A stretch of DNA of 24,474 nucleotides. Origin: a virus (Duplodnaviria; Caudoviricetes). Position numbers and translations under genes: made by a program. The DNA is taken from positions 1 to 24,474 of the IMG/VR virus record IMGVR_UViG_3300020172_001369. One strand, given 5' to 3'. Shown here piece after piece: positions 1 to 16,708 of this stretch (positions within the stretch are counted from its first letter, which is position 1; the number at the start of each line of letters is the position of its first letter). Below the pieces are notes generated by a model, which did not search any database, was not told the DNA's origin, and saw only the letters and a program-made list of their open reading frames with translations.

Positions 1-1110
1 GCTACAGCAGATGGCGGCGGAATAACATTAAAGGGCGCAACAGATAAAACTTTTAACTGGGTAGATGCCACAGACGCATGGACTTCATCAGAGCACCTTA
101 ACCTTGCTTCAGGAAAGTCATTATATTTAAACGGCACCCTATTAAAGGATGCTACAGAAACTCTTACAAATAAGACAATCAATGCAACATCAAATACAAT
201 TACAGTAACATCTGCAAATGTATCAGATTTTAATGAAGCCGCCCAGGATGCAATTGGAAATAATGTTGGAACTGGTCTTACATACACTGACTCAACAGGC
301 GCAATTTCTGTTGATACAACAACAATTCAAGCAAGAGTAACAGATGTTTCAGATACAGAAATTGGATATCTAAATGGAGTAACATCTGCAATTCAAACTC
401 AGCTAGACGATAAGTCCACAGCGTCTAAAACAGAAACTTTTACAAACAAAACCTTAACATCTCCTAAGATTAATGAGGATGTTGTTCTTACTGCAACTGC
501 CACTGAATTAAATTATGTAGACGGAGTAACTTCAGCAATTCAAACACAATTAGACGGCAAGGTAGACGAGTCACTATTTGACACAAAGGGAGATATTTTA
601 GTTGCTTCAGCTGATAATACCCCAGCTAAGCTTGCAGTTGGAACAAATGGATATTTGCTCACAGCAAATTCAAGCGCAACAAATGGAGTTGAGTGGGCGG
701 CAGCACCAATATCTCTTCCTTCTCAATCAGGAAATACTGGAAAATATTTAACAACAGATGGAACATCTGCTTCATGGGGAACCCTTGTAGTTCCAATTGT
801 AACTGGAACAGATACAGTAACTGGAAATACTGCAGAAACTGTAGACACTACAGCATTATCAGCATTTACAAGTATTGAATATATGGTTTCACTAAAGCAG
901 GGATCAAAGATTAGAACATCCAAGGTAATCCTTCAAACCGATGGAACATCTGTAGATATGACAGAGTTTGCTATTACAGAAACTGGAGGAACAATAGCAG
1001 GTATTGTAGTATCGGCAGCGGTGGCTTCAACAAATGCCGTCTTGCAAGTAACAGCAACAGACGCTTCAACCACAAACGTAACGGTAAAGTTTAGCAAAGT
1101 CGCACTTTAA
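1..1110 (+). CDS. Virion fibre protein, 5'-truncated by the window, with a C-terminal T4 gp9-like beta domain
   Basis: Frame +1 is open from base 1 (ATADGGGITLKGATDKTFNWVDATDAW...) to TAA at 1110, so the track's 655 start is internal. It has an internal repeat EIGYLNGVTSAIQTQLDDK / ELNYVDGVTSAIQTQLDGK and a shaft motif LPSQSGNTGKYLTTDGTSASW. The C-terminal KIRTSKVILQTDG..MTEFAI resembles the gp9 C-domain as I recall it. Confidence 0.75.
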   Translation, partial: ATADGGGITLKGATDKTFNWVDATDAWTSSEHLNLASGKSLYLNGTLLKDATETLTNKTINATSNTITVTSANVSDFNEAAQDAIGNNVGTGLTYTDSTGAISVDTTTIQARVTDVSDTEIGYLNGVTSAIQTQLDDKSTASKTETFTNKTLTSPKINEDVVLTATATELNYVDGVTSAIQTQLDGKVDESLFDTKGDILVASADNTPAKLAVGTNGYLLTANSSATNGVEWAAAPISLPSQSGNTGKYLTTDGTSASWGTLVVPIVTGTDTVTGNTAETVDTTALSAFTSIEYMVSLKQGSKIRTSKVILQTDGTSVDMTEFAITETGGTIAGIVVSAAVASTNAVLQVTATDASTTNVTVKFSKVAL

Positions 1111-1120
1111 GGGGTAACAA

Positions 1121-2125
1121 ATGTCAGACAAAAGCTTTAAGGTAAAAGACGGGCTAATTGTTCCGTCTTTATCTACTGCTGGAATTGTTAAAACTAGTTC
1201 CTCTGGCGTAATTACATCTTCTGCAACATTATCAATTTCAGAGGGCGGAACTGGGCAAACAACTGCAGGAAATGCTTTAAATGCATTGCTACCTCTTCAA
1301 ACAAATAATACAAACTATTTCTTACAAACAAATGGAGTTAGTCCACAATGGACATTAATGCCTCCTACTTCATATCAAACATCTGAGCCAACTAGTCCAG
1401 TATTGGGACAATTATGGATTGATTCAGATTCTTCTGCCACATCATTTGATCCCTCTATTATCCGCAGACAAGCATTTACAGCAACTGGAGGCCAAACAGT
1501 ATTTACTGTAACAAATTCATTTACTAATGGATTTGAAAGCGTATATCTAAACGGTATTTTGCTTGCCAGAACATCTGATTATACAACTTCAAATTCAAAT
1601 ACAATTACATTAGTTTCTGGGGCGGCGGTAAACGATATCCTTGAAGTAATAGGAATTACTCTTATATCTCCTACAAATACATACACACAGGCTGAAATTG
1701 ATTCTATTGTTACAACACAAGTTAATGGCCTTATTGATTCTGCCCCTTCTGCATTAAATACATTAAATGAATTAGCAGCAGCTTTGGGCGATGATGAAAA
1801 TTTTGCTACAACTGTTACAAATTCATTATCTGGTAAGAAAAATGAGTCTTCATCATCAATATCATCAAATACAAATTTAGTGGCTGGAACTAGATATTTT
1901 GTAACATCTGCATCATCATTAACATTAACACTTCCTGCATCAGCATCAGTAAATCATCAAATTGATATATTTGATGCATCAGGAAATGCGGGAACGTATA
2001 ATATAGTTGTAGCAAGAAATTCACATAAAATTAACGGTAATGAGGGTAATCTAATTATTGATGAAAATGGTAGATGGACTATGCTTGTATATACTGGTTC
2101 TACATACGGATGGGCGGTAAAATAA
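1121..2125 (+). CDS. Multi-domain fibre/adaptor ('hub') protein
   Basis: AAGGGG SD. Modules in order: N-terminal MSDKSFKVKDGL, GGTG shaft motif, EPTSPVLGQLWIDSD, an ATGGQTVF..VYLNG..DY domain, the tail-fibre coiled-coil motif APSALNTLNELAAALGDDENFATT, and a C-terminal TLTLPAS..KING..YTGSTYGW domain. Confidence 0.75.
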   Translation: MSDKSFKVKDGLIVPSLSTAGIVKTSSSGVITSSATLSISEGGTGQTTAGNALNALLPLQTNNTNYFLQTNGVSPQWTLMPPTSYQTSEPTSPVLGQLWIDSDSSATSFDPSIIRRQAFTATGGQTVFTVTNSFTNGFESVYLNGILLARTSDYTTSNSNTITLVSGAAVNDILEVIGITLISPTNTYTQAEIDSIVTTQVNGLIDSAPSALNTLNELAAALGDDENFATTVTNSLSGKKNESSSSISSNTNLVAGTRYFVTSASSLTLTLPASASVNHQIDIFDASGNAGTYNIVVARNSHKINGNEGNLIIDENGRWTMLVYTGSTYGWAVK

Positions 2126-3669
2126 TGGCAGATATTAAAACATCAAGTTTAGATGGAATACTAAAAGGGAATAATTCTTCTAGGCCAGCATCTGGTGCAA
2201 ATGGTGATTTATACGTAAATACAGAAACAGGTTTTCTAGAAGTTTATACTTCTTCTGGATGGTCAAAAATTGGAGCACAGCCTTCAGTTGTTTCTGGAGT
2301 TACTGCAACAAATTCTGGATCGGGTAGAGCATACAATAATGGATCAGCATCAGTTGCATTTACAGAGGGTTCTGTAGGCGGAACATATACTGTTACTTCT
2401 TCACCAGGATCATTTACTGCAACTGGAACAAGTTCTCCGATTACTATAACTGGATTACAGTCAAGCACTGGATATACATATACTATAGTTGCATCAAATA
2501 ATTATGGAACTTCATCTGCAAGTTCTGCCTCATCTTCTGTAACAGCAACAACAGTTCCTCAAGCACCAACAATATCTTCCGTAACAGGTGGCAACGCACA
2601 AGCTACAGTTACAGTTACCGCAAATGCTACAGGAGGATCTACAATTACTGGATATACCGTAACATCTTCTCCAGGAAATATTACAGCATCTGGTAGCTCA
2701 CCACTTACTGTAACTGGATTAACAAATGGAACAGCTTATACATTTACAGCAGTTGCAACAAATGCAAATGGAAATTCATCTGCAAGCTCCGTATCAAGCA
2801 GTGTTACTCCAGTAAGTGCTCCAACAGTTACTGGAGGAACTTTATCTTCTGACGCAACATATTACTATAGAACATTTACATCAAACGGAACACTAGCAGT
2901 TTCAAATGTTACTTTATCAGCAGACGTTTTAGTTATTGCAGGTGGAGGAGCAGGCGGTAAATCTGATGCTGGAGGAGGCGGTGGCGGAGCTGGTGGAATA
3001 ATTTATGATGACGCAAGATCTTTATCAGTTGGTAGTTATACAGTTACAGTAGGTGCTGGTGCATCAACAACAACAAGTTCTGTAAATGGATCTAACGGAT
3101 CAGACTCATATTTTGATGTATTAAGAGCATTTGGCGGTGGTGGAGGAGCTGGAAGAGGAACAAGCGGAAACTCTGGAGGTTCTGGTGGCGGTGGTGGAGC
3201 AGAAGGAAATCAATCTGGAGGATCAGTTACTCAAACTTCTAATAACTCTGGTGTAGGATACGGATTTTCTGGTGGATCTGGTCAATCTTCAAACTATTTA
3301 AATGGTGGTGGAGGTGGAGCTGGTGCAGCTGGAAATGCAACTGGTCAAATGATGGGCGGAGACGGAAAAGATACTTGGTCTTCATGGGGAGCCGCAACTT
3401 CAACTGGACAAAATGTTGGAGGAGCTAGATATTATGCAGGTGGCGGTGGAGCGGGTTCTTATAACGGATATTCTCCAGTAGGAACTGGTGGCTATGGAGG
3501 TGGAGGCGCAGCTGGACCAGCAGGTGCTGGAACAGGAACTGCTGGAACAGCTAATACTGGAGGCGGTGGAGGAGGATGTTCTTCTAATCCAAGCAATCCA
3601 GGAAACGGTGGCGGAGGCGGATCAGGCATTGTTATTGTTAGATATACAAGGGCCTCTGTAGGAGGATAA
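2125..3669 (+). CDS. Glycine-rich adhesin-like virion protein 1 (2x FN3 + Gly-rich domain)
   Basis: Start placed at ATG 2125 (TAATG overlap with the upstream stop; MADIKTSSL). Two FN3-like repeats (SPITITGL...YTYTIVASN; SPLTVTGLTNGTAYTFTAVATN) precede a GGGGAGG-rich domain ending GGSGIVIVRY. Confidence 0.8.
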   Translation: MADIKTSSLDGILKGNNSSRPASGANGDLYVNTETGFLEVYTSSGWSKIGAQPSVVSGVTATNSGSGRAYNNGSASVAFTEGSVGGTYTVTSSPGSFTATGTSSPITITGLQSSTGYTYTIVASNNYGTSSASSASSSVTATTVPQAPTISSVTGGNAQATVTVTANATGGSTITGYTVTSSPGNITASGSSPLTVTGLTNGTAYTFTAVATNANGNSSASSVSSSVTPVSAPTVTGGTLSSDATYYYRTFTSNGTLAVSNVTLSADVLVIAGGGAGGKSDAGGGGGGAGGIIYDDARSLSVGSYTVTVGAGASTTTSSVNGSNGSDSYFDVLRAFGGGGGAGRGTSGNSGGSGGGGGAEGNQSGGSVTQTSNNSGVGYGFSGGSGQSSNYLNGGGGGAGAAGNATGQMMGGDGKDTWSSWGAATSTGQNVGGARYYAGGGGAGSYNGYSPVGTGGYGGGGAAGPAGAGTGTAGTANTGGGGGGCSSNPSNPGNGGGGGSGIVIVRYTRASVGG

Positions 3670-3670
3670 T

Positions 3671-4102
3671 ATGGCTAAAACTATTAAAGTATATGATGGA
3701 ACAGGATGGCAAGACTTAGCTCTTGCTACCCCCGTTGGTGCTACAGGCCCTACAGGGCCTACTGGACCTTTAGGAGCCACAGGTGCAACTGGCGCATCAG
3801 GTGTGGCTGGAACCCCAGCTATAACCAATAGTTCAATTAATTCAAATACTACATTAGTGGCGGGAACAAGATACTTTGTAAATACAACATCTGCAAGAAC
3901 ATTAACAATGCCTTCATCTGCTACAGTTGGAGATGAAATTCAAATTATTGATTCAACAAATACGGCGGCAACAAATAATATTACAGTTTCATCAAATAGC
4001 TTAAAGATAAATGGAGAAGTCCAAAATGCTATAATTGATGTAAATAGCGGAGCAGCATTATTTTTATATACAGGTTCAATATATGGTTGGAGGATGTCTT
4101 AA
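3671..4102 (+). CDS. Short adaptor: KVYDG peptide + short collagen stretch + TLTLP/KING/YGW domain
   Basis: The GGAGGA SD is supplied by the last codons of the upstream gene. About 9 G-X-Y triplets. The C-terminal domain is paralogous to those of 1121-2125 and 9674-10180. Confidence 0.75.
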   Translation: MAKTIKVYDGTGWQDLALATPVGATGPTGPTGPLGATGATGASGVAGTPAITNSSINSNTTLVAGTRYFVNTTSARTLTMPSSATVGDEIQIIDSTNTAATNNITVSSNSLKINGEVQNAIIDVNSGAALFLYTGSIYGWRMS

Positions 4103-5695
4103 ATGGTAATAAAACTATCAAGTATGGGTGGAGTCCCTTTTGGAGATACAGCAAATAGACCATCAAATCCAGATATTGGTCAAACATATCATAATGGAGA
4201 AATTGGCGTAACTGAAATTTATACAGCAAATGGTTGGATTTCAAATAGTGCTCCTCCTGCCGCACCTTCAATTGGAACAGCTACAGATGTTGGAACATCT
4301 AGAGCTTATAACAATGGCGCAGCAACTATTACATTTACAGCTGGAACAGCTGGAGGAGTTGCTTCTTCTTATAAGGTTACATCATCTCCAGGAGCAATTC
4401 AAGCAACAGGCTCATCTTCACCAATTACAGTTTCTGGATTAAGTTCTGCAACCTTATATACATTTTCAGTTTCTGCAGAAAACAACTATAGCTCAACAGC
4501 TTCAGCAATTGCATCAAATTCAATTACAGCCACAACAGTTCCAAATGCACCAATAATTGGAACAGCAACGGCAACTGGAGTTTCTGGAACAGCAACACTT
4601 ACATTTACTGCATCAGAATCTGGTGGATCATCAATAACAAACTATTCTTACTCAACAGATGGGAATACTTATACTCCTTTTTCTCCAGCACAAACTTCAA
4701 GCCCTTTAACAGTTACGGGCTTGACCAATGGAACATCTCAAACGCTTAGATTAAAAGCAATAAATGCAAATGGGAGTTCTGCTGCAAGTTCTGCAAGTAA
4801 TTCATTTACACCAATTGCTCCAAAGGCAACAGGTGGAACTATTACAGTTTCAGGCAATACTTTTTATCACACATTTACATCAAGCGGAACATTTACTCCA
4901 AGTGCTAGCTTTACAGTCTCTGCATTAGCAGTTGGCGCAGGAGGCGGAGGAGGAAATGGCGGTGGCGGAGGAGCTGGTGGAGGTTTTGTAAGATTAATTA
5001 CAGGACAATCAGTAACTTCTGGAACAGGATATTCAATTACAATGGGAGCAGGTGGAACTGGAGGCACAACTAATACTCCAAACGGTAGCAATGCAACAAT
5101 TGGAACATCGACAACATTATTTGGACAAACATGCGTTGGTGGTGGACCAGGTGCTGGATACCAATCTAACGCACCAACAACTGGAACATTTGCAAACGGA
5201 GGAGGTGGAGGAAATGGTCAGTCAGGTGGAAACGGAAATGGGTCAACAGGTAATGCTGGTAGCGTAACAATTGGTGGCTTAACTGTAAATGGATTCGCTG
5301 GCGCAGGTGGAGGCTCATCACCTATTGGAAATATGGCTGGTTCTGGTGGAGCGGGTGCTAGACAGGCAGGAGGATTCCCATCTGGAAACTATGGAGACTC
5401 TCCAAGCAACGGACAACCTTGGATACCAGGAGTTGGAGGAAATGGTTTTCAATGGACATCAGGGCTAGGTGGAAATAATAATTATTACGCAGGTGGAGGT
5501 TCTGGAGGATGGAACTCTAATAGTCACGGCGCAGCTGGTGGACTAGGCGGAGGCGGAACATCTGGAGGATTAAATACTGCATCAACAGCCAACATTGCAG
5601 GAACTTCAAATACTGGAGGCGGTGGGTCAGGAGCTTCAGCAACTGGCGGTAATGGAGGATCTGGAATAGTTATTATTACCTATTCAGGATTATAA
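4103..5695 (+). CDS. Glycine-rich adhesin-like virion protein 2 (2x FN3 + Gly-rich domain)
   Basis: ATG directly follows the upstream TAA. Same architecture as 2125-3669: RPSNPDIGQTY..EIYTANGW, RAYNNG FN3, second FN3, YHTFTSSG, ending GGSGIVIITY. Confidence 0.8.
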   Translation: MVIKLSSMGGVPFGDTANRPSNPDIGQTYHNGEIGVTEIYTANGWISNSAPPAAPSIGTATDVGTSRAYNNGAATITFTAGTAGGVASSYKVTSSPGAIQATGSSSPITVSGLSSATLYTFSVSAENNYSSTASAIASNSITATTVPNAPIIGTATATGVSGTATLTFTASESGGSSITNYSYSTDGNTYTPFSPAQTSSPLTVTGLTNGTSQTLRLKAINANGSSAASSASNSFTPIAPKATGGTITVSGNTFYHTFTSSGTFTPSASFTVSALAVGAGGGGGNGGGGGAGGGFVRLITGQSVTSGTGYSITMGAGGTGGTTNTPNGSNATIGTSTTLFGQTCVGGGPGAGYQSNAPTTGTFANGGGGGNGQSGGNGNGSTGNAGSVTIGGLTVNGFAGAGGGSSPIGNMAGSGGAGARQAGGFPSGNYGDSPSNGQPWIPGVGGNGFQWTSGLGGNNNYYAGGGSGGWNSNSHGAAGGLGGGGTSGGLNTASTANIAGTSNTGGGGSGASATGGNGGSGIVIITYSGL

Positions 5696-5722
5696 GCACA
5701 TATAGATTTAATCATTGAATAA

Positions 5723-5731
5723 TGATAAAAT
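5723..5731 (+). promoter_or_regulatory. Extended -10 promoter (TGaTAAAAT)
   Basis: Lies in the 64-bp AT-rich gap. TAGATT sits 17 bp upstream (5703-5708) and a strong SD AAGGAGG follows at 5746-5752. Confidence 0.55.
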
Positions 5732-5759
5732 AAGAAAAACATAACAAGGAGGAAATAAC

Positions 5760-6164
5760 ATGGCACATTGGGCCGAATTAGATGAAAATAATGTAGTAAC
5801 CCGTGTTCTTGTTGGGGATAATAATGATCCAGCAGGAGATGAAGGCTACCAGTGGTTAATTGACAACCTTGGCGGAACTTGGGTAAAGACTTCATATAAT
5901 GCAGTAGCAGGAAAGCGTAGAGATCCTGAAACTGGAGAAATGACAGAAGAGGCAGGGCTTAGAAAGAATTATGCAGGTATTGGATACACATATGATTCAG
6001 TAAGAGATGCATTTATTCCACCTACTCCTTATGCATCATGGACTGTAAATGAAACAACATGCACCTGGGAAGCACCAACTCCAATGCCTACAGAAGAAGG
6101 AAAATTCTTTACATGGAATGAGGAGACAACATCATGGGAATCTCATGATGTTCCTACAGAATAA
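5760..6164 (+). CDS. Trp-rich acidic 'MAHWAELDENN' protein, putative fibre-assembly/tip partner
   Basis: Strong SD. Motifs AGIGYTYD..DAFIPP.PY.SW..CTWEAP.PMP..WNE. Paralogous to 12484-12822 and, more distantly, 9282-9635. Function is inferred from position after Gly-rich genes. Confidence 0.65.
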   Translation: MAHWAELDENNVVTRVLVGDNNDPAGDEGYQWLIDNLGGTWVKTSYNAVAGKRRDPETGEMTEEAGLRKNYAGIGYTYDSVRDAFIPPTPYASWTVNETTCTWEAPTPMPTEEGKFFTWNEETTSWESHDVPTE

Positions 6165-6168
6165 ATAA

Positions 6169-7320
6169 ATGACAAGAGCTAGAGATATTGCAGCACTTTT
6201 AACAACCGCCAGCGATTTGGCAACGGATGCTGAAACAGCTGCTGCAATCTCTACTCACAATTCTGCTACAACTTCAGTTCATGGTATTTCAAATACTGCA
6301 AGTTTAGCAACATCAACAAGTGTTTCATCTGCAATTACAACACATGCAACTGCAGCAAATGGACATGTTGGACGTGGTAATACTGCAAGTAGACCAGCAT
6401 CTCCAACAGTTGGAGATATGTATTTTGATACAACATTAGACGGATTAATTCAATATACAATAAATGAAGGATGGAAATTAATAGGTTCTGTTGGAATTCC
6501 ATTAATATCTGTAGATTATCTTGTTGTTGCAGGTGGCGGTAGTGGTGGACTTGAAAGTTCAAATGTTGGTGCTGGAGGCGGCGGTGCAGGCGGCTATCGC
6601 ACATCTGCTGGAACTTCAGGTGCAAACTCATCTGCAGAATCTGCTCTTATTTTATACAAAGGCACTGCATACACAGTAGCTATTGGCGCAGGTGGCAGTA
6701 ACGCAAGTGGAACAAATTCATCTTTTTCTACTATTACATCAATTGGTGGTGGTCGTGGTGGTGACTATGCAGGAACACAAACTGGATTTAGTGGAGGTTC
6801 GGGTGGCGGTGCTTGCTATAACCAAACAGGTTCTGCAGGAACTGCTAACCAGGGTTTTAAGGGTGGTGATTACGCTGGAGGAACCGAAGCAGGTGCAGGT
6901 GGTGGTGGAGCAAGTGCTGCGGGAGGCAATGGTCTTGGTGGTAATAATGGTTCTGCTGGCGGTAATGGCTTGGCATCATCTATCACTGGTTCATCTGTAA
7001 CAAGAGCAGGTGGCGGCGGAGGAGGTGGAGGCTATCAATCAGGAGGTCTTGGCGGTGCTGGTGGCTCTGGTGGAGGAGGCGCTGGTGGCAATACAGATAA
7101 CAATGGTATTGCAGCAACAGCAAATACTGGTAGCGGTGGCGGTGGCGCAGGTGGAGAAAGCTCGTCCGTAACTCAAAGAACGCCAGGCAATGGTGGATCA
7201 GGCATTGTCATATTACGCACAAATGTTCAAGCAACTGCTACTACAGGATCTCCAACTTACACAACTTCAGGCGGAAATCATATTTATCAATTTACATCTT
7301 CAGGGAGCATAACTTACTAA
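6169..7320 (+). CDS. Glycine-rich adhesin-like virion protein 3 (MTRARDIA N-terminus, no FN3)
   Basis: RPASPTVGDMYFDT motif, then a Gly-rich domain VDYLVVAGGGSGG...GGSGIVILR and a C-terminal IYQFTSSGSITY. Confidence 0.8.
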   Translation: MTRARDIAALLTTASDLATDAETAAAISTHNSATTSVHGISNTASLATSTSVSSAITTHATAANGHVGRGNTASRPASPTVGDMYFDTTLDGLIQYTINEGWKLIGSVGIPLISVDYLVVAGGGSGGLESSNVGAGGGGAGGYRTSAGTSGANSSAESALILYKGTAYTVAIGAGGSNASGTNSSFSTITSIGGGRGGDYAGTQTGFSGGSGGGACYNQTGSAGTANQGFKGGDYAGGTEAGAGGGGASAAGGNGLGGNNGSAGGNGLASSITGSSVTRAGGGGGGGGYQSGGLGGAGGSGGGGAGGNTDNNGIAATANTGSGGGGAGGESSSVTQRTPGNGGSGIVILRTNVQATATTGSPTYTTSGGNHIYQFTSSGSITY

Positions 7321-7736
7321 TGGCAAATAAAGATTTTAAAGTCAAAAATAATCTAGTAGTTGGAGACTTAACAACTGCTGGACCAATTGTTAGACATACA
7401 GATGGAACACTTACTTCTCATACCTCCCTCCCAATTGACAAAGGCGGAACAGGGCAAACTTCTGCTACTAATGCATTAAATGCTTTATTGCCAGTTCAAA
7501 CATCAGCATCAACAAAGTTTTTGTATTCAGATGGAACTTCAACTTCCTGGGAAACACCAAATTATTCAGAAGTAGCAGTTGATGGAGCACCATTATCAAC
7601 CAGAAAAACCCTTAATTTTATAGGGGCAACCATATCTGATGACTCCCCTAATAATAGGACTAATGTTACAATTGGAGGAAGTCAATATTCACAAGTATTG
7701 CTAGCTCAAGATATTACGGGAATGACGATTCTTTAA
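7320..7736 (+). CDS. Short fibre/adaptor with KDFKVK N-terminus
   Basis: TAATG overlap. MANKDFKVKNNL and GGTGQTSATNALNALLP match 1121-2125. C-terminal LNFIGA..NVTI motif. Confidence 0.7.
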   Translation: MANKDFKVKNNLVVGDLTTAGPIVRHTDGTLTSHTSLPIDKGGTGQTSATNALNALLPVQTSASTKFLYSDGTSTSWETPNYSEVAVDGAPLSTRKTLNFIGATISDDSPNNRTNVTIGGSQYSQVLLAQDITGMTIL

Positions 7737-7746
7737 GGAGTAAAAA

Positions 7747-8040
7747 ATGCCAGATTATGCAAGTTTATCAACACAAATTGAAGGTGCTAAAACAGAGTTA
7801 ACAGCATTGTTTTCAAGCGGTCAACTGACAGCACAAGATATGGTATTTGTTGCTTCCGCACTTGATAAGCTAGGAAGCATGCTTGGCGTTAATGATATTG
7901 TGGCGGCAACATCAGCTGGCGTTACAACTTTAACAAATACACAAAATACAGGCGTTACAACGCTTAATAACACAAGAGATTCAGCGATTGCTACAATTAA
8001 TAGCACATACTTACACCCGCTGTTTTTGATAGGAGTATAA
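7747..8040 (+). CDS. Small helical virion/linker protein
   Basis: AAGGAG SD, amphipathic helical pattern, a short GVTTL repeat and a hydrophobic C-terminus YLHPLFLIGV. Confidence 0.6.
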   Translation: MPDYASLSTQIEGAKTELTALFSSGQLTAQDMVFVASALDKLGSMLGVNDIVAATSAGVTTLTNTQNTGVTTLNNTRDSAIATINSTYLHPLFLIGV

Positions 8041-8043
8041 CAA

Positions 8044-8373
8044 ATGGCAACAACTTATAAGGTATTAGGACAATTAAATCCGTCAGCAACAACAGCTTCG
8101 ACTTTGTATACATGTCCATCAAGCACTGAAGCAATCTGGTCAACACTTAATGTTGCAAACTTATCTTCATCTGCAGCAACTTTTCGCATTGCAGTTAGAC
8201 CAGACGGTGCCACATTAGAAAATAAGCACTATCTTGCATATGATGTATCAATTGGAGCAAACAACTCAACAGCACTAACATTAGGTGGAACATTAAATGC
8301 TGCCGATGTAGTTACTGTTTATGCATCTAATGCTAATTTATCATTTAACTTGTTTGGATCGGAGATTGCATAA
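8044..8373 (+). CDS. Small beta-rich virion protein (MATTYKVLGQ family)
   Basis: AGGAG SD within the upstream gene end. Beta-sandwich-like pattern (TLYTCP, LNVAN, FRIAV, YLAYDVSI). TAATG-coupled to the next gene. Confidence 0.65.
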   Translation: MATTYKVLGQLNPSATTASTLYTCPSSTEAIWSTLNVANLSSSAATFRIAVRPDGATLENKHYLAYDVSIGANNSTALTLGGTLNAADVVTVYASNANLSFNLFGSEIA

Positions 8374-9275
8374 TGCCAATTCAAAATTTTTATACACCTG
8401 CTGCTGGTCAGCAAAAAATTCCATATTATCAAGTATTAACATCTAGCGGAACATGGACATTGCCATCAGGTTATGGAGCTGGAAATCCATTAACAGTCTA
8501 TGCAGTATGTATTGGAGGCGGAGGTGGCGGTGCTGGTGGCAACGGAGCTGTTGCAACATTTAGAAATGAAACAAATACAGGTGATTATGGATATTCAACT
8601 GGAGCTGCAGGCGGACTTGGCGGAAATTGTGGATTAATTTCATCTGGAACACTATCCTTAACATCAAATGTTTCATACACTATAGGTGCTGGTGGTTCTG
8701 GAGGAGCAGCTGGATCAAAAAATAATACAACTGGAGATGCTAATAATTATGGCCAGACTAGGGCTGGAAATAATGGTGGAGCGGGATCTTCTGGAGGATC
8801 TACTACTTTTAGTTCTTTAACAGCGTCTGGTGGTTCAGGCGGAGCAATTGGTAGCGGAACAGGATCACAAACTCAAACACAATCAGCCTCGGCCTGGACA
8901 AGAACATGGTCTAGCTCTGGTTCATCAATAGCGCCAACCGTTAATATAAATTCAGCATATGCCACAACTTCATGTGCTATTGGTGGATCTGGTGGATACC
9001 AAGGTAGTGGTCAAAGCATTGGCACCGCTGTAACAATAACTCAAACACAAAACACAGCTTCTTCTTTAGCACCTACTGGTTCAGTAACTGTAGACTCATC
9101 CGCATTTTCTAGATATGGATCAGGCGGCGGTGGGGGTAATGGAGATACTGGTGGTTATTCATGGCATGGAGGAGGCGGCAGCTATTCATGGAATGCAGTA
9201 TCCAACTTTGGAAATGCCGCAACATCTGGTGGAAGTGGAGGACAAGGCTTAATAGTTCTATACTACTTAGCCTAA
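8373..9275 (+). CDS. Glycine-rich adhesin-like virion protein 4 (divergent, Gly-rich domain only)
   Basis: Framework LTSSGTWTLP..CIGGGGGG..YTIGAGG..STTF..GGQGLIVLYY. Confidence 0.75.
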   Translation: MPIQNFYTPAAGQQKIPYYQVLTSSGTWTLPSGYGAGNPLTVYAVCIGGGGGGAGGNGAVATFRNETNTGDYGYSTGAAGGLGGNCGLISSGTLSLTSNVSYTIGAGGSGGAAGSKNNTTGDANNYGQTRAGNNGGAGSSGGSTTFSSLTASGGSGGAIGSGTGSQTQTQSASAWTRTWSSSGSSIAPTVNINSAYATTSCAIGGSGGYQGSGQSIGTAVTITQTQNTASSLAPTGSVTVDSSAFSRYGSGGGGGNGDTGGYSWHGGGGSYSWNAVSNFGNAATSGGSGGQGLIVLYYLA

Positions 9276-9281
9276 TAAATT

Positions 9282-9635
9282 ATGAACAATAAATATGCAA
9301 TTCTAAATGAAAACAATATAGTAATCAATACTATTGTAATTGATGATTCCGAGTATGATATTAATGATTTTATTTCATTAACACCAGAATCAGATCATGC
9401 AGTTAAAGTAGATAATAATGGAGAGCCGTTTATCGGAGAGCCATTTATTAATGGGTGGTTTAGAACACATTCGCCATATTCTGGCTGGATCTGGGATGAA
9501 AATTCTCACGAATGGAATGCTCCAGTATTAAGGCCAGCAGGCAGAGACTATGTTTGGGATAATTCTACAGAGTCATGGGAATTGTCTGAATATGAAAAAC
9601 TTCAGGATATTTTGGCTCAACAAACAACAAATTAA
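9282..9635 (+). CDS. Trp-rich acidic partner protein (divergent MAHWAE-like paralog)
   Basis: YAILNENNIVINTIV matches WAELDENNVVTRV. PYSGWIWDE..EWNAPV.RP..WDNSTESW matches the C-terminus of 5760-6164. Confidence 0.65.
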   Translation: MNNKYAILNENNIVINTIVIDDSEYDINDFISLTPESDHAVKVDNNGEPFIGEPFINGWFRTHSPYSGWIWDENSHEWNAPVLRPAGRDYVWDNSTESWELSEYEKLQDILAQQTTN

Positions 9636-9673
9636 TAATTAAGATATATCAATTAGGGGATAAGTGAACCAGA

Positions 9674-10180
9674 TTGTCAGATAAGAATTTTAAAGTAAAA
9701 AATAAGCTCACCATAGCTGGGCTTACTAATTCATCTGGCGTCCTCCTTGTTGAAGGTCATACTGTTGATTCACATACTAATTTAGCAACACAATATGGCG
9801 GAACAGGAACAACAACATCTCCTAATTCTGGAGAATTCTTATATTCATCTGGTGGAACAACATATGCTGCTACTTCTTTATCATCCACCGTCCCACTTTG
9901 GGCGGCAGTATCAGTAAACTCAAACATAACACTTTCTAAGTGGAATAACTATATGGTTAATACATCATCTGCTAGAACATTAACACTTCCAGCATCTCCA
10001 TCATCTGGTGATGAAATTCACATTTTTGATGTAACTGGAACAGCAGCAACAAATAAAATTACAGTAGGTTCAAATTCAAATAAAATAAATGGAGCAGTTC
10101 AAGATTTAGAAATTGACGCAAATAATGCGGGAGTCGTTCTAATATATACTGGATCAGCTTATGGATGGAAGGTATCATAA
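9674..10180 (+). CDS. Short adaptor: KNFKVK N-terminus + TLTLP/KING/YGW domain
   Basis: The TTG start is supported by alignment of MSDKNFKVKNKL with the N-termini at 1121 and 7320. The C-terminal domain is paralogous to those of 1121 and 3671. Confidence 0.75.
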   Translation: MSDKNFKVKNKLTIAGLTNSSGVLLVEGHTVDSHTNLATQYGGTGTTTSPNSGEFLYSSGGTTYAATSLSSTVPLWAAVSVNSNITLSKWNNYMVNTSSARTLTLPASPSSGDEIHIFDVTGTAATNKITVGSNSNKINGAVQDLEIDANNAGVVLIYTGSAYGWKVS

Positions 10181-12481
10181 ATGGCATTAAGCTATACATC
10201 ATTAGCAGGCGGTGGATCTTCAGGGTTTGCAACAAATGACTTTACAATAAACGTTGGGTCATCTGGAAATACATCAGTGCCGTTAACCACATCTTTTCCG
10301 TCTGGAAGCTATATTTGCACCTCATCTTTATCTGATGCCACGCTTGATATTTATTTAATTAATGAAGATGGAACATCTGCAGGATATTCAAGTGCTACAA
10401 CTTCAGTTACAACAGTTACTGCATCAAAAGCTTTTAATAAAGTAGTAATTTATGGAGCAGCAAATAATGATACTTTAACATTTCAATTCAAGTATGTATT
10501 TACACCAAATGCAGCAAGTTCTTCAGATTTCTTAGCAGTAGGACCAAAAATTACATCAGTCTCAGATTCAGATCTTCAAAACATTAACGACACAACAACC
10601 ATCACAGGATTCAATTTTGCAGAAGATGTTCAAGTTGCATTTACTGGAACAGGATACTCCTCAACTGCAGCAAAGTCGATTGTCAGGTCATCATCTACAT
10701 CCTTGCTAGTAACTAGACCAGATAACTTCCCAACATCTGGAGCACCATATACGATTACAGTTACAAATCCAGGAATTTCTAATCCAACATCTACAAATTC
10801 ACATGTTTTAGCAAGCTCTGTAACTGCTGGAAATGCCCCAGTATGGGTAACATCAGCAACACTTACACCTTTTCAAAAAGGTGTTTCATACTCTCAAGTA
10901 ATTCAAGCAACAGATTCTGATGGAGGATCATCGGTAACATATTCAATTATTTCTGGATCTTTGCCAACAGGTATTTCTTTTGACACAGGAACTGCGACAT
11001 TTAGTGGAACTCCAACAGCAAATTCTGGTGTTCCATATTCTTATACTATTCGTGCTACAGACTCAGGGGGCAACTTTGTAAATAGAGCATTTTCATTAAC
11101 ACAGGCTGTTCCAGATGCTCCAACTTCAGTAGTTGGAACAGATGTTGGAACTAGTCGTGCATTTAACAATGGAGCCGTATCGGTTGCCTTTACAGCCCCA
11201 TCTTATACAGGAACAAGCTCAATAACATCTTATACCGTAACAGCAAGCACTGGACAAACAGCATCAGGCGCAACATCGCCTATTGTAGTAACAGGAATAG
11301 CAACTGGAGCAACTCCAACATTTACAGTTACCGCAACTAACACTGGTGGAACTTCATTATCTTCAGGTGCATCTTCTGCAGTTACCGTAACAACAGTTCC
11401 AGGAGCACCAACAATTGGAACAGCTTCTATTACTAATACTACAACAGCATCGGTTACATTTACAGCAGGACTAACTGGAGGTAAATCTATTACTTCTTAT
11501 GTTGGAGCTTCAAGTCCTTCAATATCTGTCTCAACTTCTGCTGGAACAACTAGCCCCGTTTCTGTTACTGGTTCTTATGGACAAGGACAGTCGTATACAT
11601 TTGCACTAGCTGCAGTAAATGCAAATGGAACATCTGATTATTCAGCATATTCAAATGGCATAACCCTACTGACGTTGCCTACAGTTAGCGGAGGAACACT
11701 GGGATCTGATGCGACCTATTATTATAGAACATTTACTAGCAACGGAAACTTAGTAGTTTCAACTGGTTCACTTTCAGTAACTGCATTAATGGTAGGTGGT
11801 GGTGGCTCTGGTGGTTATAGTGCACGTGAATTTGACCCAACTTACGGAACATATATGGTAAGAGCGGGTGGCGGAGGAGCAGGTGGATTAATAGAACCTA
11901 CTGCTACAATAGCTCCTGGAACATATTCAATTGTTATCGGCGCAGGCGGAGTATATAATAATAACAATGGAACAAGTTCAACATTTAATGGCAATACGGC
12001 AATTGGCGGCGGCTATGGAACATACTTTAACGGTGCAACTGGCGGTTCTGGAGGCGGAGGAGGCTCCATTACTGCAGCAGGATTTGGTGCATATGCTGGA
12101 GGAGCAGGAACTGCTGGACAAGGAAATGCTGGATCTGGTGGAACCACGGGCAACGGCGGTGGCGGCGGAGGTAAAGGAGCAGCTGGTAGCGTTCCAAGCG
12201 GAGGTGCTGGTGGACTTTATTCGGCATATGCTTCAGCAACTGGAACTGGATCTGGAGGATACTACGCAGGTGGAGGAGCAGGAACTACTGGAAGCGGAGG
12301 AGCTGGAGGCGGAGGCAATTCAACTTCTGGTTCTATAGGTGCAAATGGAGCAGCTAATACTGGAGGCGGCGCAGGCGGAGGCGGCTACACAAATCAAAGC
12401 AGTGATGGAACATTGGCTGGAGGAAATGGTGGATCTGGCGTTGTTATAGTAAGATATTTAAGATCAGCAGTAGGAGGATAA
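10181..12481 (+). CDS. Glycine-rich adhesin-like virion protein 5 (IPT/TIG-like, putative-Ig, 2x FN3, Gly-rich domain)
   Basis: PKITSVS..ITGFNF..ITVTNP (IPT-like), then QATDSDG..SGSLPTG..SGTPT..IRATD (He_PIG-like), RAFNNG FN3, and DATYYYRTFTSNG. Ends RYLRSAVGG, like protein 1. Confidence 0.8.
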   Translation: MALSYTSLAGGGSSGFATNDFTINVGSSGNTSVPLTTSFPSGSYICTSSLSDATLDIYLINEDGTSAGYSSATTSVTTVTASKAFNKVVIYGAANNDTLTFQFKYVFTPNAASSSDFLAVGPKITSVSDSDLQNINDTTTITGFNFAEDVQVAFTGTGYSSTAAKSIVRSSSTSLLVTRPDNFPTSGAPYTITVTNPGISNPTSTNSHVLASSVTAGNAPVWVTSATLTPFQKGVSYSQVIQATDSDGGSSVTYSIISGSLPTGISFDTGTATFSGTPTANSGVPYSYTIRATDSGGNFVNRAFSLTQAVPDAPTSVVGTDVGTSRAFNNGAVSVAFTAPSYTGTSSITSYTVTASTGQTASGATSPIVVTGIATGATPTFTVTATNTGGTSLSSGASSAVTVTTVPGAPTIGTASITNTTTASVTFTAGLTGGKSITSYVGASSPSISVSTSAGTTSPVSVTGSYGQGQSYTFALAAVNANGTSDYSAYSNGITLLTLPTVSGGTLGSDATYYYRTFTSNGNLVVSTGSLSVTALMVGGGGSGGYSAREFDPTYGTYMVRAGGGGAGGLIEPTATIAPGTYSIVIGAGGVYNNNNGTSSTFNGNTAIGGGYGTYFNGATGGSGGGGGSITAAGFGAYAGGAGTAGQGNAGSGGTTGNGGGGGGKGAAGSVPSGGAGGLYSAYASATGTGSGGYYAGGGAGTTGSGGAGGGGNSTSGSIGANGAANTGGGAGGGGYTNQSSDGTLAGGNGGSGVVIVRYLRSAVGG

Positions 12482-12483
12482 AA

Positions 12484-12822
12484 ATGGCACATTGGGCAGA
12501 ACTAGATGAAAACAACATTGTTATAAGAGTAACAGTAGGATCAAATGAAGATCCAGATGAAGGATATCAATGGCTAATTGATAATTTAGGCGGAAGATGG
12601 ATTAAGACTTCATATAATGCAAGAAATGGTAAAAGAGTAAATCCTGAAACAAACGAAGAAACAGAAGAACCAGGCTTTAGAAAAAATTTTGCAGGAATAG
12701 GCTCTATATATGATGAGCAAAGAGATGCCTTTATTCCTCCAAAGCCTATAATTATAAGTCCTTCTGGATCAGAATTAGAATTTTTGTTTGATGAAGAAAC
12801 ATGCAGTTGGATAAGGGCATAG
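12484..12822 (+). CDS. 'MAHWAELDENN' partner protein, shorter paralog
   Basis: AGGAGGA SD. Shares MAHWAELDENN, DEGYQWLIDNLGG.W.KTSYNA and DAFIPP with 5760-6164, but lacks the last Trp module. Confidence 0.7.
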   Translation: MAHWAELDENNIVIRVTVGSNEDPDEGYQWLIDNLGGRWIKTSYNARNGKRVNPETNEETEEPGFRKNFAGIGSIYDEQRDAFIPPKPIIISPSGSELEFLFDEETCSWIRA

Positions 12823-12890: not shown

Positions 12891-13949
12891 ATGCGTTTTC
12901 ATGTAATTAATCTACCACATACAAATACAACAAAAGATTTTGTTAATTGCGCCTATACGGAAAAGGTAAGGCGATTTTGTAATATGATGAAATCATTAGG
13001 GCATACAGTTTATTTATACGGCGGCGAAGAAAATGAAGCTGACGTAGATGAATTTATTACATGTATAACAGAAGAAGAAAGATTAATAAGTTTAAATGGG
13101 AAGCACTACGTAGAAGCTTCCTTTGATACCTCCCTCCCACATTGGCAAAGTTTTAACAACAAAGCAATTATAGAAATTGCTAAAAGAATAGAACAAAAAG
13201 ATTTTATATGTATAATTGGCGGAACTGCACAGAAGCCTATTTCAGATTATTTTCCAAACCACATTTCGGTAGAGTATGGAATTGGGTATGGCGGAACATT
13301 TGCCAAGTATCGTGTATTTGAATCATATGCTTGGATGCATAGTATGTATGGAGGATGGAAAAATCCTACATCTGCAGATGGTAATTTTTTTGATGCAGTA
13401 ATTAATGGTTACTTAGAACCAGAAATGTTTCCATTAGTTGAAAAGAAAAACCCTTACTATTTATATATGGGCAGAATGATTGATCGTAAGGGTGTTGCAA
13501 TTGCTTCTCAGGTCTGCGAAGAACTTGGAGTAGATCTAATTATGGCGGGGCCAGGAAATGAGATTCCCCCATATGGAAACTATATTGGAGCAGTTGGTCC
13601 AGAAGAAAGAGCAAAGTTAATGGGTGGAGCAACAGCTCTATTTGCCCCAACTAAATATATTGAGCCATTTGGTAATGTTGTTATTGAAGCACAAGCATGT
13701 GGAACTCCTACAATTACTACAGATTGGGGAGCATTTACAGAAACAAATATAAATGGGTTAACGGGTTATAGATGCCGCACATTTGATGAATTTTGTAAAG
13801 CGGCGGAAGATGTAAAGAGCCTTGATCCAAAAACTATACATGAAAGGGCCATTAGTCTATACTCAGTAGATAGCATCAAATATGAGTATGACAAGTATTT
13901 CAGCCGTCTTTTAACCTTATGGGATAAAGGCTGGTATCAAAGAAGTTAA
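12891..13949 (+). CDS. GT-B fold glycosyltransferase (GT4 / Glycos_transf_1-like)
   Basis: LGHTVYLYG, YMGRMIDRKG, and the EX7E motif EPFGNVVIEAQACGTPTITTDWGA. Confidence 0.9.
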   Translation: MRFHVINLPHTNTTKDFVNCAYTEKVRRFCNMMKSLGHTVYLYGGEENEADVDEFITCITEEERLISLNGKHYVEASFDTSLPHWQSFNNKAIIEIAKRIEQKDFICIIGGTAQKPISDYFPNHISVEYGIGYGGTFAKYRVFESYAWMHSMYGGWKNPTSADGNFFDAVINGYLEPEMFPLVEKKNPYYLYMGRMIDRKGVAIASQVCEELGVDLIMAGPGNEIPPYGNYIGAVGPEERAKLMGGATALFAPTKYIEPFGNVVIEAQACGTPTITTDWGAFTETNINGLTGYRCRTFDEFCKAAEDVKSLDPKTIHERAISLYSVDSIKYEYDKYFSRLLTLWDKGWYQRS

Positions 13950-13964: not shown

Positions 13965-14978
13965 ATGGGCACAACAGGCAAGGGTTTTAGATACCCACAA
14001 TATTCAGCAACACCAGATGTTCCAAGAGATTTAGAATACTTGGCAGATGATGTTGATGCATACTTAGATGCACATCCTGGTCCAACTGGACCAACTGGCG
14101 TAACTGGACCAGCAGGTGCAACAGGACCAACTGGAGTAACAGGTGTAGCGGGACCAACTGGAGTAACTGGCCCAGCAGGAGCAACAGGGCCAACTGGAGT
14201 AACGGGACCATCAGGTGCAACAGGGCCAACTGGAGTAACGGGACCAGCAGGTGCAACAGGACCAACTGGAGTAACAGGACCCACAGGTTCTACAGGAGTA
14301 ACAGGACCATCAGGTGCATCAGGAGCAACTGGATTGCAAGGATCTGGCGTAGTAATTCTTGGAACTTATTCCACACTGTCAGCATTACAATCTGCACACC
14401 CAACTGGATCTGCAGGAGATGGATATACTGTATCTGGAAATTTATATGTTTGGTCAGCAAACACTTCAAGTTGGATAGATGTTGGACCATTAGAAGGGCC
14501 AACTGGCCCAATAGGAGTAACAGGAGTAACAGGACCAACAGGAGTTACTGGACCAACTGGAGTAACAGGACCAACAGGTGTAACTGGTGTAGCGGGACCA
14601 ACTGGAGTAACTGGGCCAGAAGGTGCAACAGGACCAACTGGCGTAACAGGACCATCAGGTGTAGCAGGACCAACTGGAGTAACAGGTGTAGCAGGACCAA
14701 CTGGAGTAACAGGTGTAACTGGACCAGAAGGTGCAACAGGACCAACTGGAGTAACAGGACCAACAGGAGTTACTGGACCAACTGGAATAACAGGGCCAAC
14801 TGGAGTAACGGGTCCAGCAGGTGCTACGGGCGTAACAGGGCCATCAGGTGCAACAGGCCCAACTAATTCAAATGCTTACACAAATGGCATGACGACATCT
14901 GCAAATAAAGTATTCTATAATACAACTGGAACAAATCCAACCGCAACTGCGGCAGGCGACCTCTATATTTACTATTAG
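13965..14978 (+). CDS. Collagen-like fibre protein
   Basis: N-terminal anchor-like [20 protein letters not shown]. Two G-X-Y blocks are separated by a [14 protein letters not shown] knob. C-terminus [13 protein letters not shown]. Confidence 0.85.
14079..14348 (+). repeat. Collagen block 1, ~30 G-X-Y triplets (9-bp period)
   Basis: GPT/GVT/GAT/GPA triplets; recurrent ggaccaactggagtaac. Confidence 0.9.
14496..14864 (+). repeat. Collagen block 2, ~41 G-X-Y triplets
   Basis: Uninterrupted [12 protein letters not shown] triplets. Confidence 0.9.
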
Positions 14979-14986
14979 GAGCTAAT

Positions 14987-16708
14987 ATGACTATAAAAGT
15001 ATATGATGGCTCTACATGGCAAACTCAAAAAAGTTTAAAGATTTCACCAGATGGATCTACCTGGTCCACAGCTAAAAAGGGCTGGATTTACAATGGAACA
15101 TTATGGTCTCAATTTTATCCAGAGTATCCATTAAATACAGCATCTCCATCGGTTAGTGGATCTACAACTCAAGGACAAACACTTACATGTTCAACTGGAA
15201 CATGGAATATAAATGATGCATTTATAGGAACATATACCTATCAATGGACTAGGGCTGGCTCCAATATATCTAGTGCAACATCCTCAACATATTCAACAGT
15301 ATTGGCAGATGTTGGCAATGCAATTGCATGTAAAGTAACATCAACAAATGAAAGAGGAACAACTACTGTAACAAGTAGTAATTCAATTTCAGTTGTTAGC
15401 GCAATTCCAGGAGCACCATCAGGGCTTTCATTGTCTGATACAACAGACACACCCCCAACCCCAGGAGCAATGTCTGTATCAAGCGTAACACAAACATCAC
15501 TCAACTTCTCATTTGGAGCAGCAACTGGGACATTTACTGCATATGAAGTTTTAACATCAAACAGCAATCATGTTGCTTCATCTTTAAATCAATCTACACG
15601 AACTGGATCTATTACTGGCGGATCTGCTGGAGAGTCATATTTTGTTTCAGCATTTACAACAAATACAAATTGTAAGCTAACAGCGTCATGGTCAGCTGGA
15701 ACAAACGCAACATCATATGACGTTTATGTTGGCGGATCTTATGTTGGAAATACAACTAGCACAAGTTATACTCATACCGCAGGAAGTATAGGGTCTAAAT
15801 CAGTTAATGTTCGTTCTAGAAATGCTTCAGGAGCAGAGGCAACAGGTGTATCTGGAAGCATAACTTTAAGCAAAAGATATTCATCTGGAGGGACGGCTGC
15901 TAGTGGTAATTTTTTAAGTAATTATACAGTTAGCTGGAATGCAAACGGAGGAGCAGTTTCTCCAGCATCTAGCACAGTATCTCCAGGGTCTTCCGTTACT
16001 GCTCCAACTCCAACAAGAAGCGGATATTCATTTAGTGGTTGGTATAACGCTTCTTCTGGCGGATCTCTTATAGTAAATGCAGGTAATTCATATACCCCAT
16101 CATCAAGTATTACCCTTTATGCACAATGGACATTGACTCCAATTACTCCAAGTATAGGAAGTTTATCTATTAGCACTTCTGATACTGCACAAACTTTAAT
16201 TACTGTTAATTGGAGTTCTACAAATCAAAATACATGGTCACTAACAGTAAACCCATCTACAGGTGGATCTGGAGGAGGATCTTCATTTTCTGGATCAAGC
16301 CAAACAACTAAATATATTGGAGTAGGAACCGCTGGAACTACTTATACAATTCAATTAACTGTTACATCTTCAACAGGACATACTGCATCTAGTTCAGTAA
16401 ATCATACTCCGCCATCAGCAGGCACAGCGCCATCAACTCCATCTGGTCTAACAAATACATATTCTACTGGTCCAACATGGAACGGCTCTTGGACCGCTTC
16501 TAGTGGAACAACCCCAATAACATATTATTGGACACTGTATCAGTCTGCAACAAGTGGCGGAACAATAAATGCTACTGCAAGTGGAAATACAACTGGAACA
16601 TCATTTTCACAATCAATGAATAGTGCAAATGGTTTATGGGCATACTTTACGGTGTATGCTCAAAATTCAGCTGGAACTTCTGGAACAGCAACTTCTGGGT
16701 GGGCATAA
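14987..16708 (+). CDS. Ser/Thr-rich Ig/FN3/InlB-B-repeat virion protein (putative tip of the collagen fibre)
   Basis: AGGAG SD and N-terminal MTIKVYDGSTW. Ig-like GQTLTCSTGTW..YTYQW, FN3 motifs, and a YTVSWNANGG..PTRSGYSFSGWY..TLYAQW repeat (Listeria-Bacteroides type). Confidence 0.8.
   Translation: MTIKVYDGSTWQTQKSLKISPDGSTWSTAKKGWIYNGTLWSQFYPEYPLNTASPSVSGSTTQGQTLTCSTGTWNINDAFIGTYTYQWTRAGSNISSATSSTYSTVLADVGNAIACKVTSTNERGTTTVTSSNSISVVSAIPGAPSGLSLSDTTDTPPTPGAMSVSSVTQTSLNFSFGAATGTFTAYEVLTSNSNHVASSLNQSTRTGSITGGSAGESYFVSAFTTNTNCKLTASWSAGTNATSYDVYVGGSYVGNTTSTSYTHTAGSIGSKSVNVRSRNASGAEATGVSGSITLSKRYSSGGTAASGNFLSNYTVSWNANGGAVSPASSTVSPGSSVTAPTPTRSGYSFSGWYNASSGGSLIVNAGNSYTPSSSITLYAQWTLTPITPSIGSLSISTSDTAQTLITVNWSSTNQNTWSLTVNPSTGGSGGGSSFSGSSQTTKYIGVGTAGTTYTIQLTVTSSTGHTASSSVNHTPPSAGTAPSTPSGLTNTYSTGPTWNGSWTASSGTTPITYYWTLYQSATSGGTINATASGNTTGTSFSQSMNSANGLWAYFTVYAQNSAGTSGTATSGWA

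Follow-up and report, generated by a model that had tools for sequence, protein, structure and literature searches.

Genetically paired terminal motifs in a freshwater phage gene island suggest branched, host-binding fibers

Branched or multi-part fibers have been described in several phages. In CBA120 (TSP1-4) and G7C (gp66-gp63.1), partner trimers attach to hubs that carry T4 gp10-like domains; the account in PMC8825819 has XD2 and XD3 binding, calls XD1 a spacer, and describes tips that are β-helix depolymerases. In T4, the C-terminal domain of gp9, a short protein of the baseplate whose middle domain is XD1, is the attachment site of the long fiber via the N-terminus of gp34 (PMC10253068), with one gp34 served. 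RaK2/Alcyoneusvirus, a jumbo myophage with enzymatic tips, is reported to hold about ten proteins in nested branches via gp10-like domains, one of them with a gp9-C-like end, and XD1 is proposed there not to bind (PMC10253068). Plug-and-socket assembly was shown by experiment in the Klebsiella phages KP32/K11, in which RBP2 is anchored to a branching domain through a short N-terminal peptide, giving one junction between two receptor-binding proteins (PMC13352976). Finally, Pam3 gp24-gp25 and S16 gp38 pair a glycine-rich head with a small downstream partner, in Pam3 on one unbranched fiber (PMC9608196). Here, we examined a 24,474-nt window (the whole stretch of DNA analyzed, from IMG/VR virus record IMGVR_UViG_3300020172_001369), whose positions 1..12822 form an island of 15 consecutive fiber open reading frames (ORFs), all on the + strand.

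These ORFs were found at the coordinates given in an earlier note on this DNA, and many are coupled by TAATG or by abutting stop and start codons. Genes are named ORF1 or by their start coordinate within the window. The earlier note had proposed that short N-terminal peptides (plugs) dock into cognate domains (sockets) of other gene products. We consider it probable, although some way from certain, that the island encodes fiber proteins with genetically paired terminal motifs that likely dock trimer-on-trimer into branched host-binding fibers. The logic of such an assembly is already known and tested in Klebsiella phages (PMC13352976), and its parts belong to the set already described from T4 and CBA120. 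The description of the island as analogous to CBA120/G7C in logic but not in parts must therefore be revised, since its putative sockets are homologues of CBA120 TSP4 XD1, T4 gp10/gp34 XD1, and T4 gp9-C. The novelty lies in XD1 being used as a terminal domain, in a split ring, in how deeply the branches with their non-enzymatic glycine-rich tips are nested, and in a conserved triad of plug genes. More specifically, and in contrast to CBA120/G7C, the window appears to use at least five junction types, three levels deep, its XD1 is terminal and the apparent main socket, and its tips combine FN3 domains with glycine-rich heads. In the main texts of open-license papers and preprints, our searches turned up no account of such a system from freshwater phages.

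Loci of relatives were collected with four window-derived queries and 17 extensions and were merged by exact overlap, yielding 152 contigs in addition to the window. Adjacency of the gp9-C, XD1-glycine-rich, Trp-rich, and adaptor genes was counted in a first set of 1668 distinct gene pairs, with glycine-rich genes recognized by a composition rule. We divided the islands into blocks, each reaching from a KxFKVK gene to the following gene of this kind or, failing that, to where the island stops; blocks with an open end were excluded, leaving 86 distinct blocks. The motif patterns were widened after misses had been seen, and before widening 16/18 islands agreed. Across these contigs, plugs and sockets co-occur as the earlier note had anticipated, with pairs matching beyond background in the relatives.

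The putative root of the system would join ORF1 to the products of three genes. The start MxxKxFKVKxxL, reported for 1121, 7320, and 9674, is indeed present on all of them, and the similarity spans ~80 aa, with 47% and 35% identity to 1121. Full-length ORF1 relatives are fibers of 605-1503 aa, and the one that was scanned starts with Mtd_N (PF18454). A model of the ORF1 C-terminal domain (predicted local distance difference test, pLDDT, 95) matched T4 gp9 (1QEX) in Foldseek (E 9e-5, query TM-score, TMq, 0.72) and residues 178-297 of 9F4A_LA, the gp9 of a T4-like Klebsiella phage (Z 11.1, root-mean-square deviation (rmsd) 2.4, 102 aligned), with several tailspike C-termini close behind (Z 10.7-7.5; 6E1R Z 10.7). 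The gp9 identity of this domain rests on the fold because a profile comparison with T4 gp9-C gave a probability of only 1.6%. A PHROG 967 match was obtained for 2/18 ORF1 family members, a sequence search of solved structures with the domain returned no useful match, and tblastn of the domain against cultured phages returned none.

We modeled the ORF1 domain and 1121 residues 1-80 in complex, each in three copies, alongside three controls. The cognate 3:3 model scored 0.94 and the best of the controls 0.00, so the expected gap between cognate and control pairs was seen at the root junction, the one scored. The score threshold is reached by 116/157 solved pairs and by 2/215 mismatched pairs, a calibration that is roughly applicable to a 3:3 model. 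At least 82% of the contacts were common between runs, the partner pLDDT was at least 93, and the interface coincided exactly with the motif, pairing 1121 residues 1-10 and 13 with residues 44, 54-64, and 74-78 of the socket. There are three equivalent ORF1 grooves in the model, all filled by strands of one 1121 homotrimer. The ORF1 C-terminal trimer is predicted, then, to bind the KxFKVK strand of 1121, with the same C-terminal fold and the same N-terminal-strand docking as in T4 gp9-gp34 (1QEX; 9F4A; PMC10253068; bioRxiv 10.64898/2026.03.06.709160). ORF1 differs from gp9 in that the domain ends a long fiber and the genome has three plug proteins. In the relatives, a gp9-C gene was followed by a KxFKVK gene in 44/46 pairs, compared to a background of 111/1668. 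Other arrangements of the same modules also occur: a protein of locus L155 and proteins P0052, P0060, P0069, and P0077 are tips in which an initial plug-like strand precedes a gp9-C-like domain of the tip itself, and other proteins in relatives carry 2-7 gp9-C repeats.

In addition to its terminal domain, hub 1121 has two candidate sockets that were not on the earlier list, a half-ring and an XD2/3-like domain. A ring motif is complete in tips 2125, 4103, and 6169, whereas its first half is found in 1121 and its second half at the start of 3671; from these sequences, the KVYDG start of 3671 likely completes the 1121 half-ring. Indeed, the number of half-rings equals the number of KVYDG starts in 86/86 blocks (28 with, 58 without). 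The profile of a 68-residue domain (1121 aa 114-181) matches two tandem domains of the K1 depolymerase 9K4A (E 4e-4) and, weakly, 7XY1 (E 0.58); a single-sequence search of solved structures with this domain found no match. We infer that the matched regions of 9K4A and 7XY1 are branching domains, and we read the 1121 domain as XD2/3-like and as a candidate socket. It goes together with an MTRAR start: 36 blocks have both, 49 have neither, 1 has the socket only, and 0 have the plug only (presence agrees in 85/86), and the two counts agree in 79/86 blocks. The 9 blocks with an XD2/3-like domain but without a half-ring have MTRAR in 9/9 and KVYDG in 0/9. Since the partners of both pairs are often non-adjacent, linkage alone explains the pairing poorly.

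Variations on these two junctions were also seen. Loci with MIDQY/MSIESY proteins (e.g., L013, L015, and L025) have an extra MSKAR-type start without a second XD2/3-like domain. Within the window, 13965-16708 holds a collagen-like gene with a half-ring-like tail, followed by a gene that starts with MTIKVYDG and carries a Listeria-Bacteroides repeat; judging by these ends, another junction of the split-ring type probably lies here, on a fiber separate from the island.

The third type of domain, TLT(L/M)P..KING..YTGSxYGW, lies at the C-terminus of 1121, 3671, and 9674 (46-56% identity), and each of these genes overlaps or abuts a glycine-rich gene, as had been noted. Its profile matches residues 91-174 of CBA120 TSP4 (7RFV; E 2e-16), T4 gp10 56-138 (E 5e-9), gp34 99-184 (E 3e-7), and also gp9 79-149. 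An assignment to XD2 was considered and dropped on the domain borders given in PMC8825819, which make it XD1. PMC8825819 and PMC10253068 treat XD1 as a non-binding spacer, on the grounds that its ends are at opposite faces; in 1121, 3671, and 9674 it is the last domain, and therefore one face would be free.

A terminal XD1 was followed by a glycine-rich gene in 61/89 cases, compared to a background of 212/1668. The full set contains 102 terminal-XD1 pairs, of which the 89 within 5 nt were those counted for plugs. The similar starts claimed for the glycine-rich genes after XD1 amount to a loose likeness within the window; a plug-like start pattern does emerge in the relatives, where it follows 85/89 coupled XD1 genes, in comparison with 598/2220 genes overall. 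For co-variation, 86 pairs were clustered to 59. The similarity of XD1 domains correlated with that of residues 2-11 of the downstream gene (r 0.62, n = 59), as against 0.27 for downstream residues 12-60, 0.24 for the downstream C-terminus, and 0.35 for the gene's own N-terminus. In addition, XD1 tails with W.F[DE] precede the start M.I[RK]K in 11/11 cases (0/78 with other tails), and tails with WK[VA][GA] precede a gene with Asp3 in 16/16 (4/73 with other tails). Collectively, these correlations suggest that XD1, terminal here, appears to be the main socket of the island.

These pairs might instead be co-inherited as recombination units, with docking only at the root or nowhere, in which case the tips would be independent fibers, or would not belong to the virion at all, and a terminal binding function could fall to gp9-C or XD1. 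We regard this explanation as quite improbable, but several observations suit it and weigh against docking in general. Adjacent sequences co-vary by linkage, which the adjacency of paired motifs reflects as well; moreover, the motif patterns were tuned on the same loci, the loci were fetched with window modules, and the relatives share ancestry. XD1 is reported as a non-binding spacer in TSP4, gp10, and gp9 in the descriptions given by PMC8825819 and PMC10253068. Several tailspikes end in gp9-C-like domains, so the fold by itself is no proof of a socket, and the sequence link of ORF1 to gp9-C is weak. A 20-residue plug profile had no match to T4 gp34, leaving homology of the plug to gp34 without support from the profile search, and a comparison of the 1121 domain with the gp10 XD2/3 profile was not significant (0.7%). 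XD2/3-like and MTRAR counts differ in 7/86 blocks. The 3:3 model, that of the sole junction modeled, may have passed from likeness to the solved gp9-gp34 complex (9F4A), and the branched tree is proposed here from genes and one predicted complex. Against co-inheritance alone stand the non-adjacent pairs that match in number across the 86 blocks, the co-variation that falls sharply past residue 11 of the downstream gene, and the root junction, which passes the complex test.

The ends of the putative branches are glycine-rich proteins. Five paralogues had been proposed, and four of them (2125, 4103, 6169, and 10181) pass Pfam PF21722; 8373 does not, and is at most a putative paralogue. Against a profile of the other tips, 8373 scored 92.9, while 300 shuffles of it averaged 79.5 and peaked at 127; it is nevertheless glycine-rich, with an ending similar to that of the other tips. 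None of the tips has a β-helical depolymerase, four being FN3/PF21722 or PF21722 proteins and the fifth lacking a Pfam match. By analogy with Pam3 gp24 and S16 gp38, the glycine-rich tips probably bind the host. In many loci (e.g., L011, L012, and L052), small non-fiber genes of ~180-260 aa lie between tip genes.

A further junction type may involve the small adaptor 8044. A gene with a hydrophobic-Gly tail was followed by an 8044-like adaptor in 30/35 cases, and 30/60 of the 8044-like adaptors came after such a tail, under a narrow tail pattern. For 7747, no homologue was found among the first set of loci. Sequence searches of solved structures with adaptor 8044 and with the glycine-rich profile gave no useful match, ESM Atlas searches for 8044 and 5760 matched only unnamed viral clusters and did not identify the adaptor fold, and tblastn of the glycine-rich domain against cultured phages had no match, a search that the low-complexity filter limits.

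Some of these parts are present in described phages. Tip 6169 shares 85% identity over 273 aa (79% of DNA over 814 nt) with a gene of Planktophila phage E7, a 39-kb phage whose copy has another N-terminus and sits behind a tail-adaptor-tip run. The E7 fiber region (L233:11566-17534; OX376640) encodes a fiber with a hydrophobic-Gly tail, an 8044-like adaptor, and two glycine-rich tips, with a Trp-rich gene four genes beyond the tail-adaptor-tip genes. The fiber region of Melnitz-3 has XD2/3-like, adaptor, and Trp-rich genes, and in one contig of run X6 modules of the window are arranged differently along the sequence. Tips, plugs, and sockets are shuffled between phages in this way, which would retune host range.

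The three Trp-rich partners (5760, 9282, and 12484, with 7, 6, and 4 Trp) each sit directly after a glycine-rich gene, in agreement with the earlier note. Although 9282 is divergent (25% identity), it matches the same PHROGs as the others. In the relatives, a glycine-rich gene precedes 50/70 Trp-rich genes, and 50/204 glycine-rich genes have a Trp-rich gene. The best fold match of the Trp-rich model, with a modest Z, was 7YPX_a 4-57, the N-terminal domain of Pam3 gp25 (Z 4.7, rmsd 2.2, 54 aligned), the top of 7 rows among 48,161 chains, with Mu Tfa (5YVQ_B) third at Z 2.1; Foldseek gave no significant match (E 4.2), and a sequence search of solved structures with the family gave no useful one. 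According to PMC9608196, the gp25 N-terminal domain grips the glycine-rich head gp24, and gp25 was not detected in virions. The Trp-rich model has a single helix (residues 29-36) and differs from gp25 in lacking its C-terminal helical trimerization domain. Rather than forming branches, the Trp-rich proteins look like assembly chaperones, likely for folding of the glycine-rich heads, after which they may leave the particle.

In the assembly that we favor, the gp9-like C-terminal trimer of ORF1 would take KxFKVK strands, three strands in three grooves, each ORF1 trimer would carry one of three alternative homotrimers, and the virion would be a mosaic of three subtrees. In subtree A, the terminal XD1 of hub 1121 would hold tip 2125, the split ring of the hub would be completed by linker 3671, which would in turn carry tip 4103, and the XD2/3-like domain would hold tip 6169. 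Subtree B would be the chain 7320-7747-8044-8373, and subtree C would be 9674 with tip 10181. The proposed docking of N-terminal peptides into cognate domains is largely supported by one complex model and the pair statistics in relatives. Likewise, the wiring drawn in the earlier note fits our data for 1121 with 2125, 3671, and 6169, for 3671 with 4103, for 9674 with 10181, and for 7747-8044-8373, whereas 7320-7747 is a matter of adjacency alone. Contrary to what had been suggested, ORF1 probably does not bind 1121, 7320, and 9674 at once: the three branches likely alternate between fibers, because one 1121 homotrimer fills all three ORF1 grooves in the model. Alternative occupancy is also favored because the collagen-like repeats of 3671 and the tail-fiber helical segment of 1121 hint at homotrimers and because type B stems are ~20 aa shorter in 15/18 islands.

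The number three nevertheless calls for another explanation to be weighed, namely that one ORF1 trimer holds all three KxFKVK proteins, one strand per groove, either as an A-B-C heterotrimer or with one strand from each of three trimers, giving five tips per fiber. Of the 18 complete islands, 17 combine a single gp9-C gene with exactly three KxFKVK genes. When 54 N-termini from 18 islands (these 17 and one near-complete) were placed in a tree, a clade with 100/100 support, type C, contained one gene from each of the 18 islands. This triad, with one type C per island, is unexplained by free competition and counts against alternating branches. The three-way arrangement also agrees with the single gp9-C match in both near-complete genomes searched, the three equivalent grooves in the model, and the three stems being in register in the window. 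It sits poorly with the shorter type B stems and with the distal domains of 1121, which belong to trimeric families. Moreover, the remaining complete island has a single KxFKVK gene, one partial locus has four, and another has three though its first hub is missing, which likely puts it above three; some relatives have a second gp9-C-bearing gene. Three fixed recombination slots could also keep the number without stoichiometry. On balance, we think a three-way split at ORF1 rather unlikely. Similarly doubtful is the wider proposal that such a split, together with terminal XD1, the split ring, and the small adaptors, builds one fiber with five different glycine-rich heads, so that the wiring behind multivalent host recognition by lake actinophages would be a code legible in the genes. 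Alternating homotrimers remain our preferred reading, and the features of the island are listed in Table 1.

Table 1. Genes of the fiber island and their features (positions in nt of the window)
Gene	Position	Strand	Features
ORF1, fiber trunk	1..1110	+	5'-truncated by window start; C-terminal T4 gp9-C-like putative socket 790-1107
1121, hub A	1121..2125	+	KxFKVK plug aa 1-13; half-ring aa 90-103 (nt 1388-1429)
1121, hub A, further domains		+	XD2/3-like nt 1460-1663; helical fiber segment aa 184-257; C-terminal XD1 nt 1841-2122
2125, tip 1	2125..3669	+	XD1-type plug, ring motif, FN3 domains, PF21722; start overlaps 1121 stop
3671, linker	3671..4102	+	KVYDG start, short collagen-like repeats, C-terminal XD1
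4103, tip 2	4103..5695	+	XD1-type plug, ring motif, two FN3 domains, PF21722
5760, Trp-rich partner	5760..6164	+	PHROG 7759; likely gp25/Tfa-like assembly chaperone; model pLDDT 93
6169, tip 3	6169..7320	+	MTRAR plug (likely for 1121 XD2/3-like domain), ring motif, PF21722
7320, branch B base	7320..7736	+	KxFKVK plug, short fiber, hydrophobic C-terminal tail
7747, small linker	7747..8040	+	hydrophobic-Gly tail, type preceding 8044-like adaptors
8044, small adaptor	8044..8373	+	PHROG 1276; present too in phages Melnitz-3 and E7
8373, tip 4	8373..9275	+	divergent glycine-rich protein; without Pfam match
9282, divergent Trp-rich partner	9282..9635	+	PHROG 7759 and 14370
9674, branch C base	9674..10180	+	TTG start; type C KxFKVK plug, C-terminal XD1; 7RFV (TSP4) 57-174, E 2e-7
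10181, tip 5	10181..12481	+	XD1-type plug, several β-rich domains, FN3, PF21722
12484, Trp-rich partner	12484..12822	+	68% identity to 5760

The window is a phage fragment with portal, protease, capsid, and head-tail adaptor genes downstream of the island; its capsid protein shares 58-59% identity with the capsid proteins of large Streptomyces phages. Relatives have ~107 kb genomes (2 complete) and a tape measure of 2103 aa. The runs that best hold the stretch are freshwater metagenomes, and no RNA run is among the listed runs holding it. Contigs of one run, X1, which may be the source, are identical in every letter to the listed pieces. We infer an actinobacterial host, backed by the tip common to the window and Planktophila phage E7, the latter as described in PMC10202952. 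Upstream of the island in one relative examined lies a gene with a weak match to the T5 L-fiber assembly protein (PHROG 3304, E 1e-5) and a Pfam LtfC score under the cut-off, and the ORF1 homologue of that relative has Mtd_N at its N-terminus. Because of these two similarities, a tail-fiber location of the island products is likely.

The surroundings of the island held further genes. A chain upstream of it in relatives (L019:5471-10318) comprises an LtfC-like gene, two linkers (one with an IDGG end), and an ORF1 homologue with an Mtd_N start; an IDGG end before an Mtd_N start may be a further junction type. At 12891-13949 of the window, a glycosyltransferase closes the island, another lies upstream of the island in a relative, and they could modify fibers or DNA. 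A conserved LamG-domain protein (17127-18995) stands directly before the portal module and marks the island end in relatives.

Since the cultured phage E7 combines a near-identical tip with a Trp-rich gene and the junction of tail, adaptor, and tip, parts of the system are testable now. If the proposed docking is true, XD1, called a non-binding spacer in two papers, would have a binding role, two widespread unknown families, PHROG 7759 and 1276, would gain a likely function, and several orthogonal peptide-domain pairs would be usable for multi-tip phages. More broadly, the host-recognition architecture of abundant uncultured lake phages would be readable from gene ends, and the system may account for the ability of these phages to deal with microdiverse hosts.

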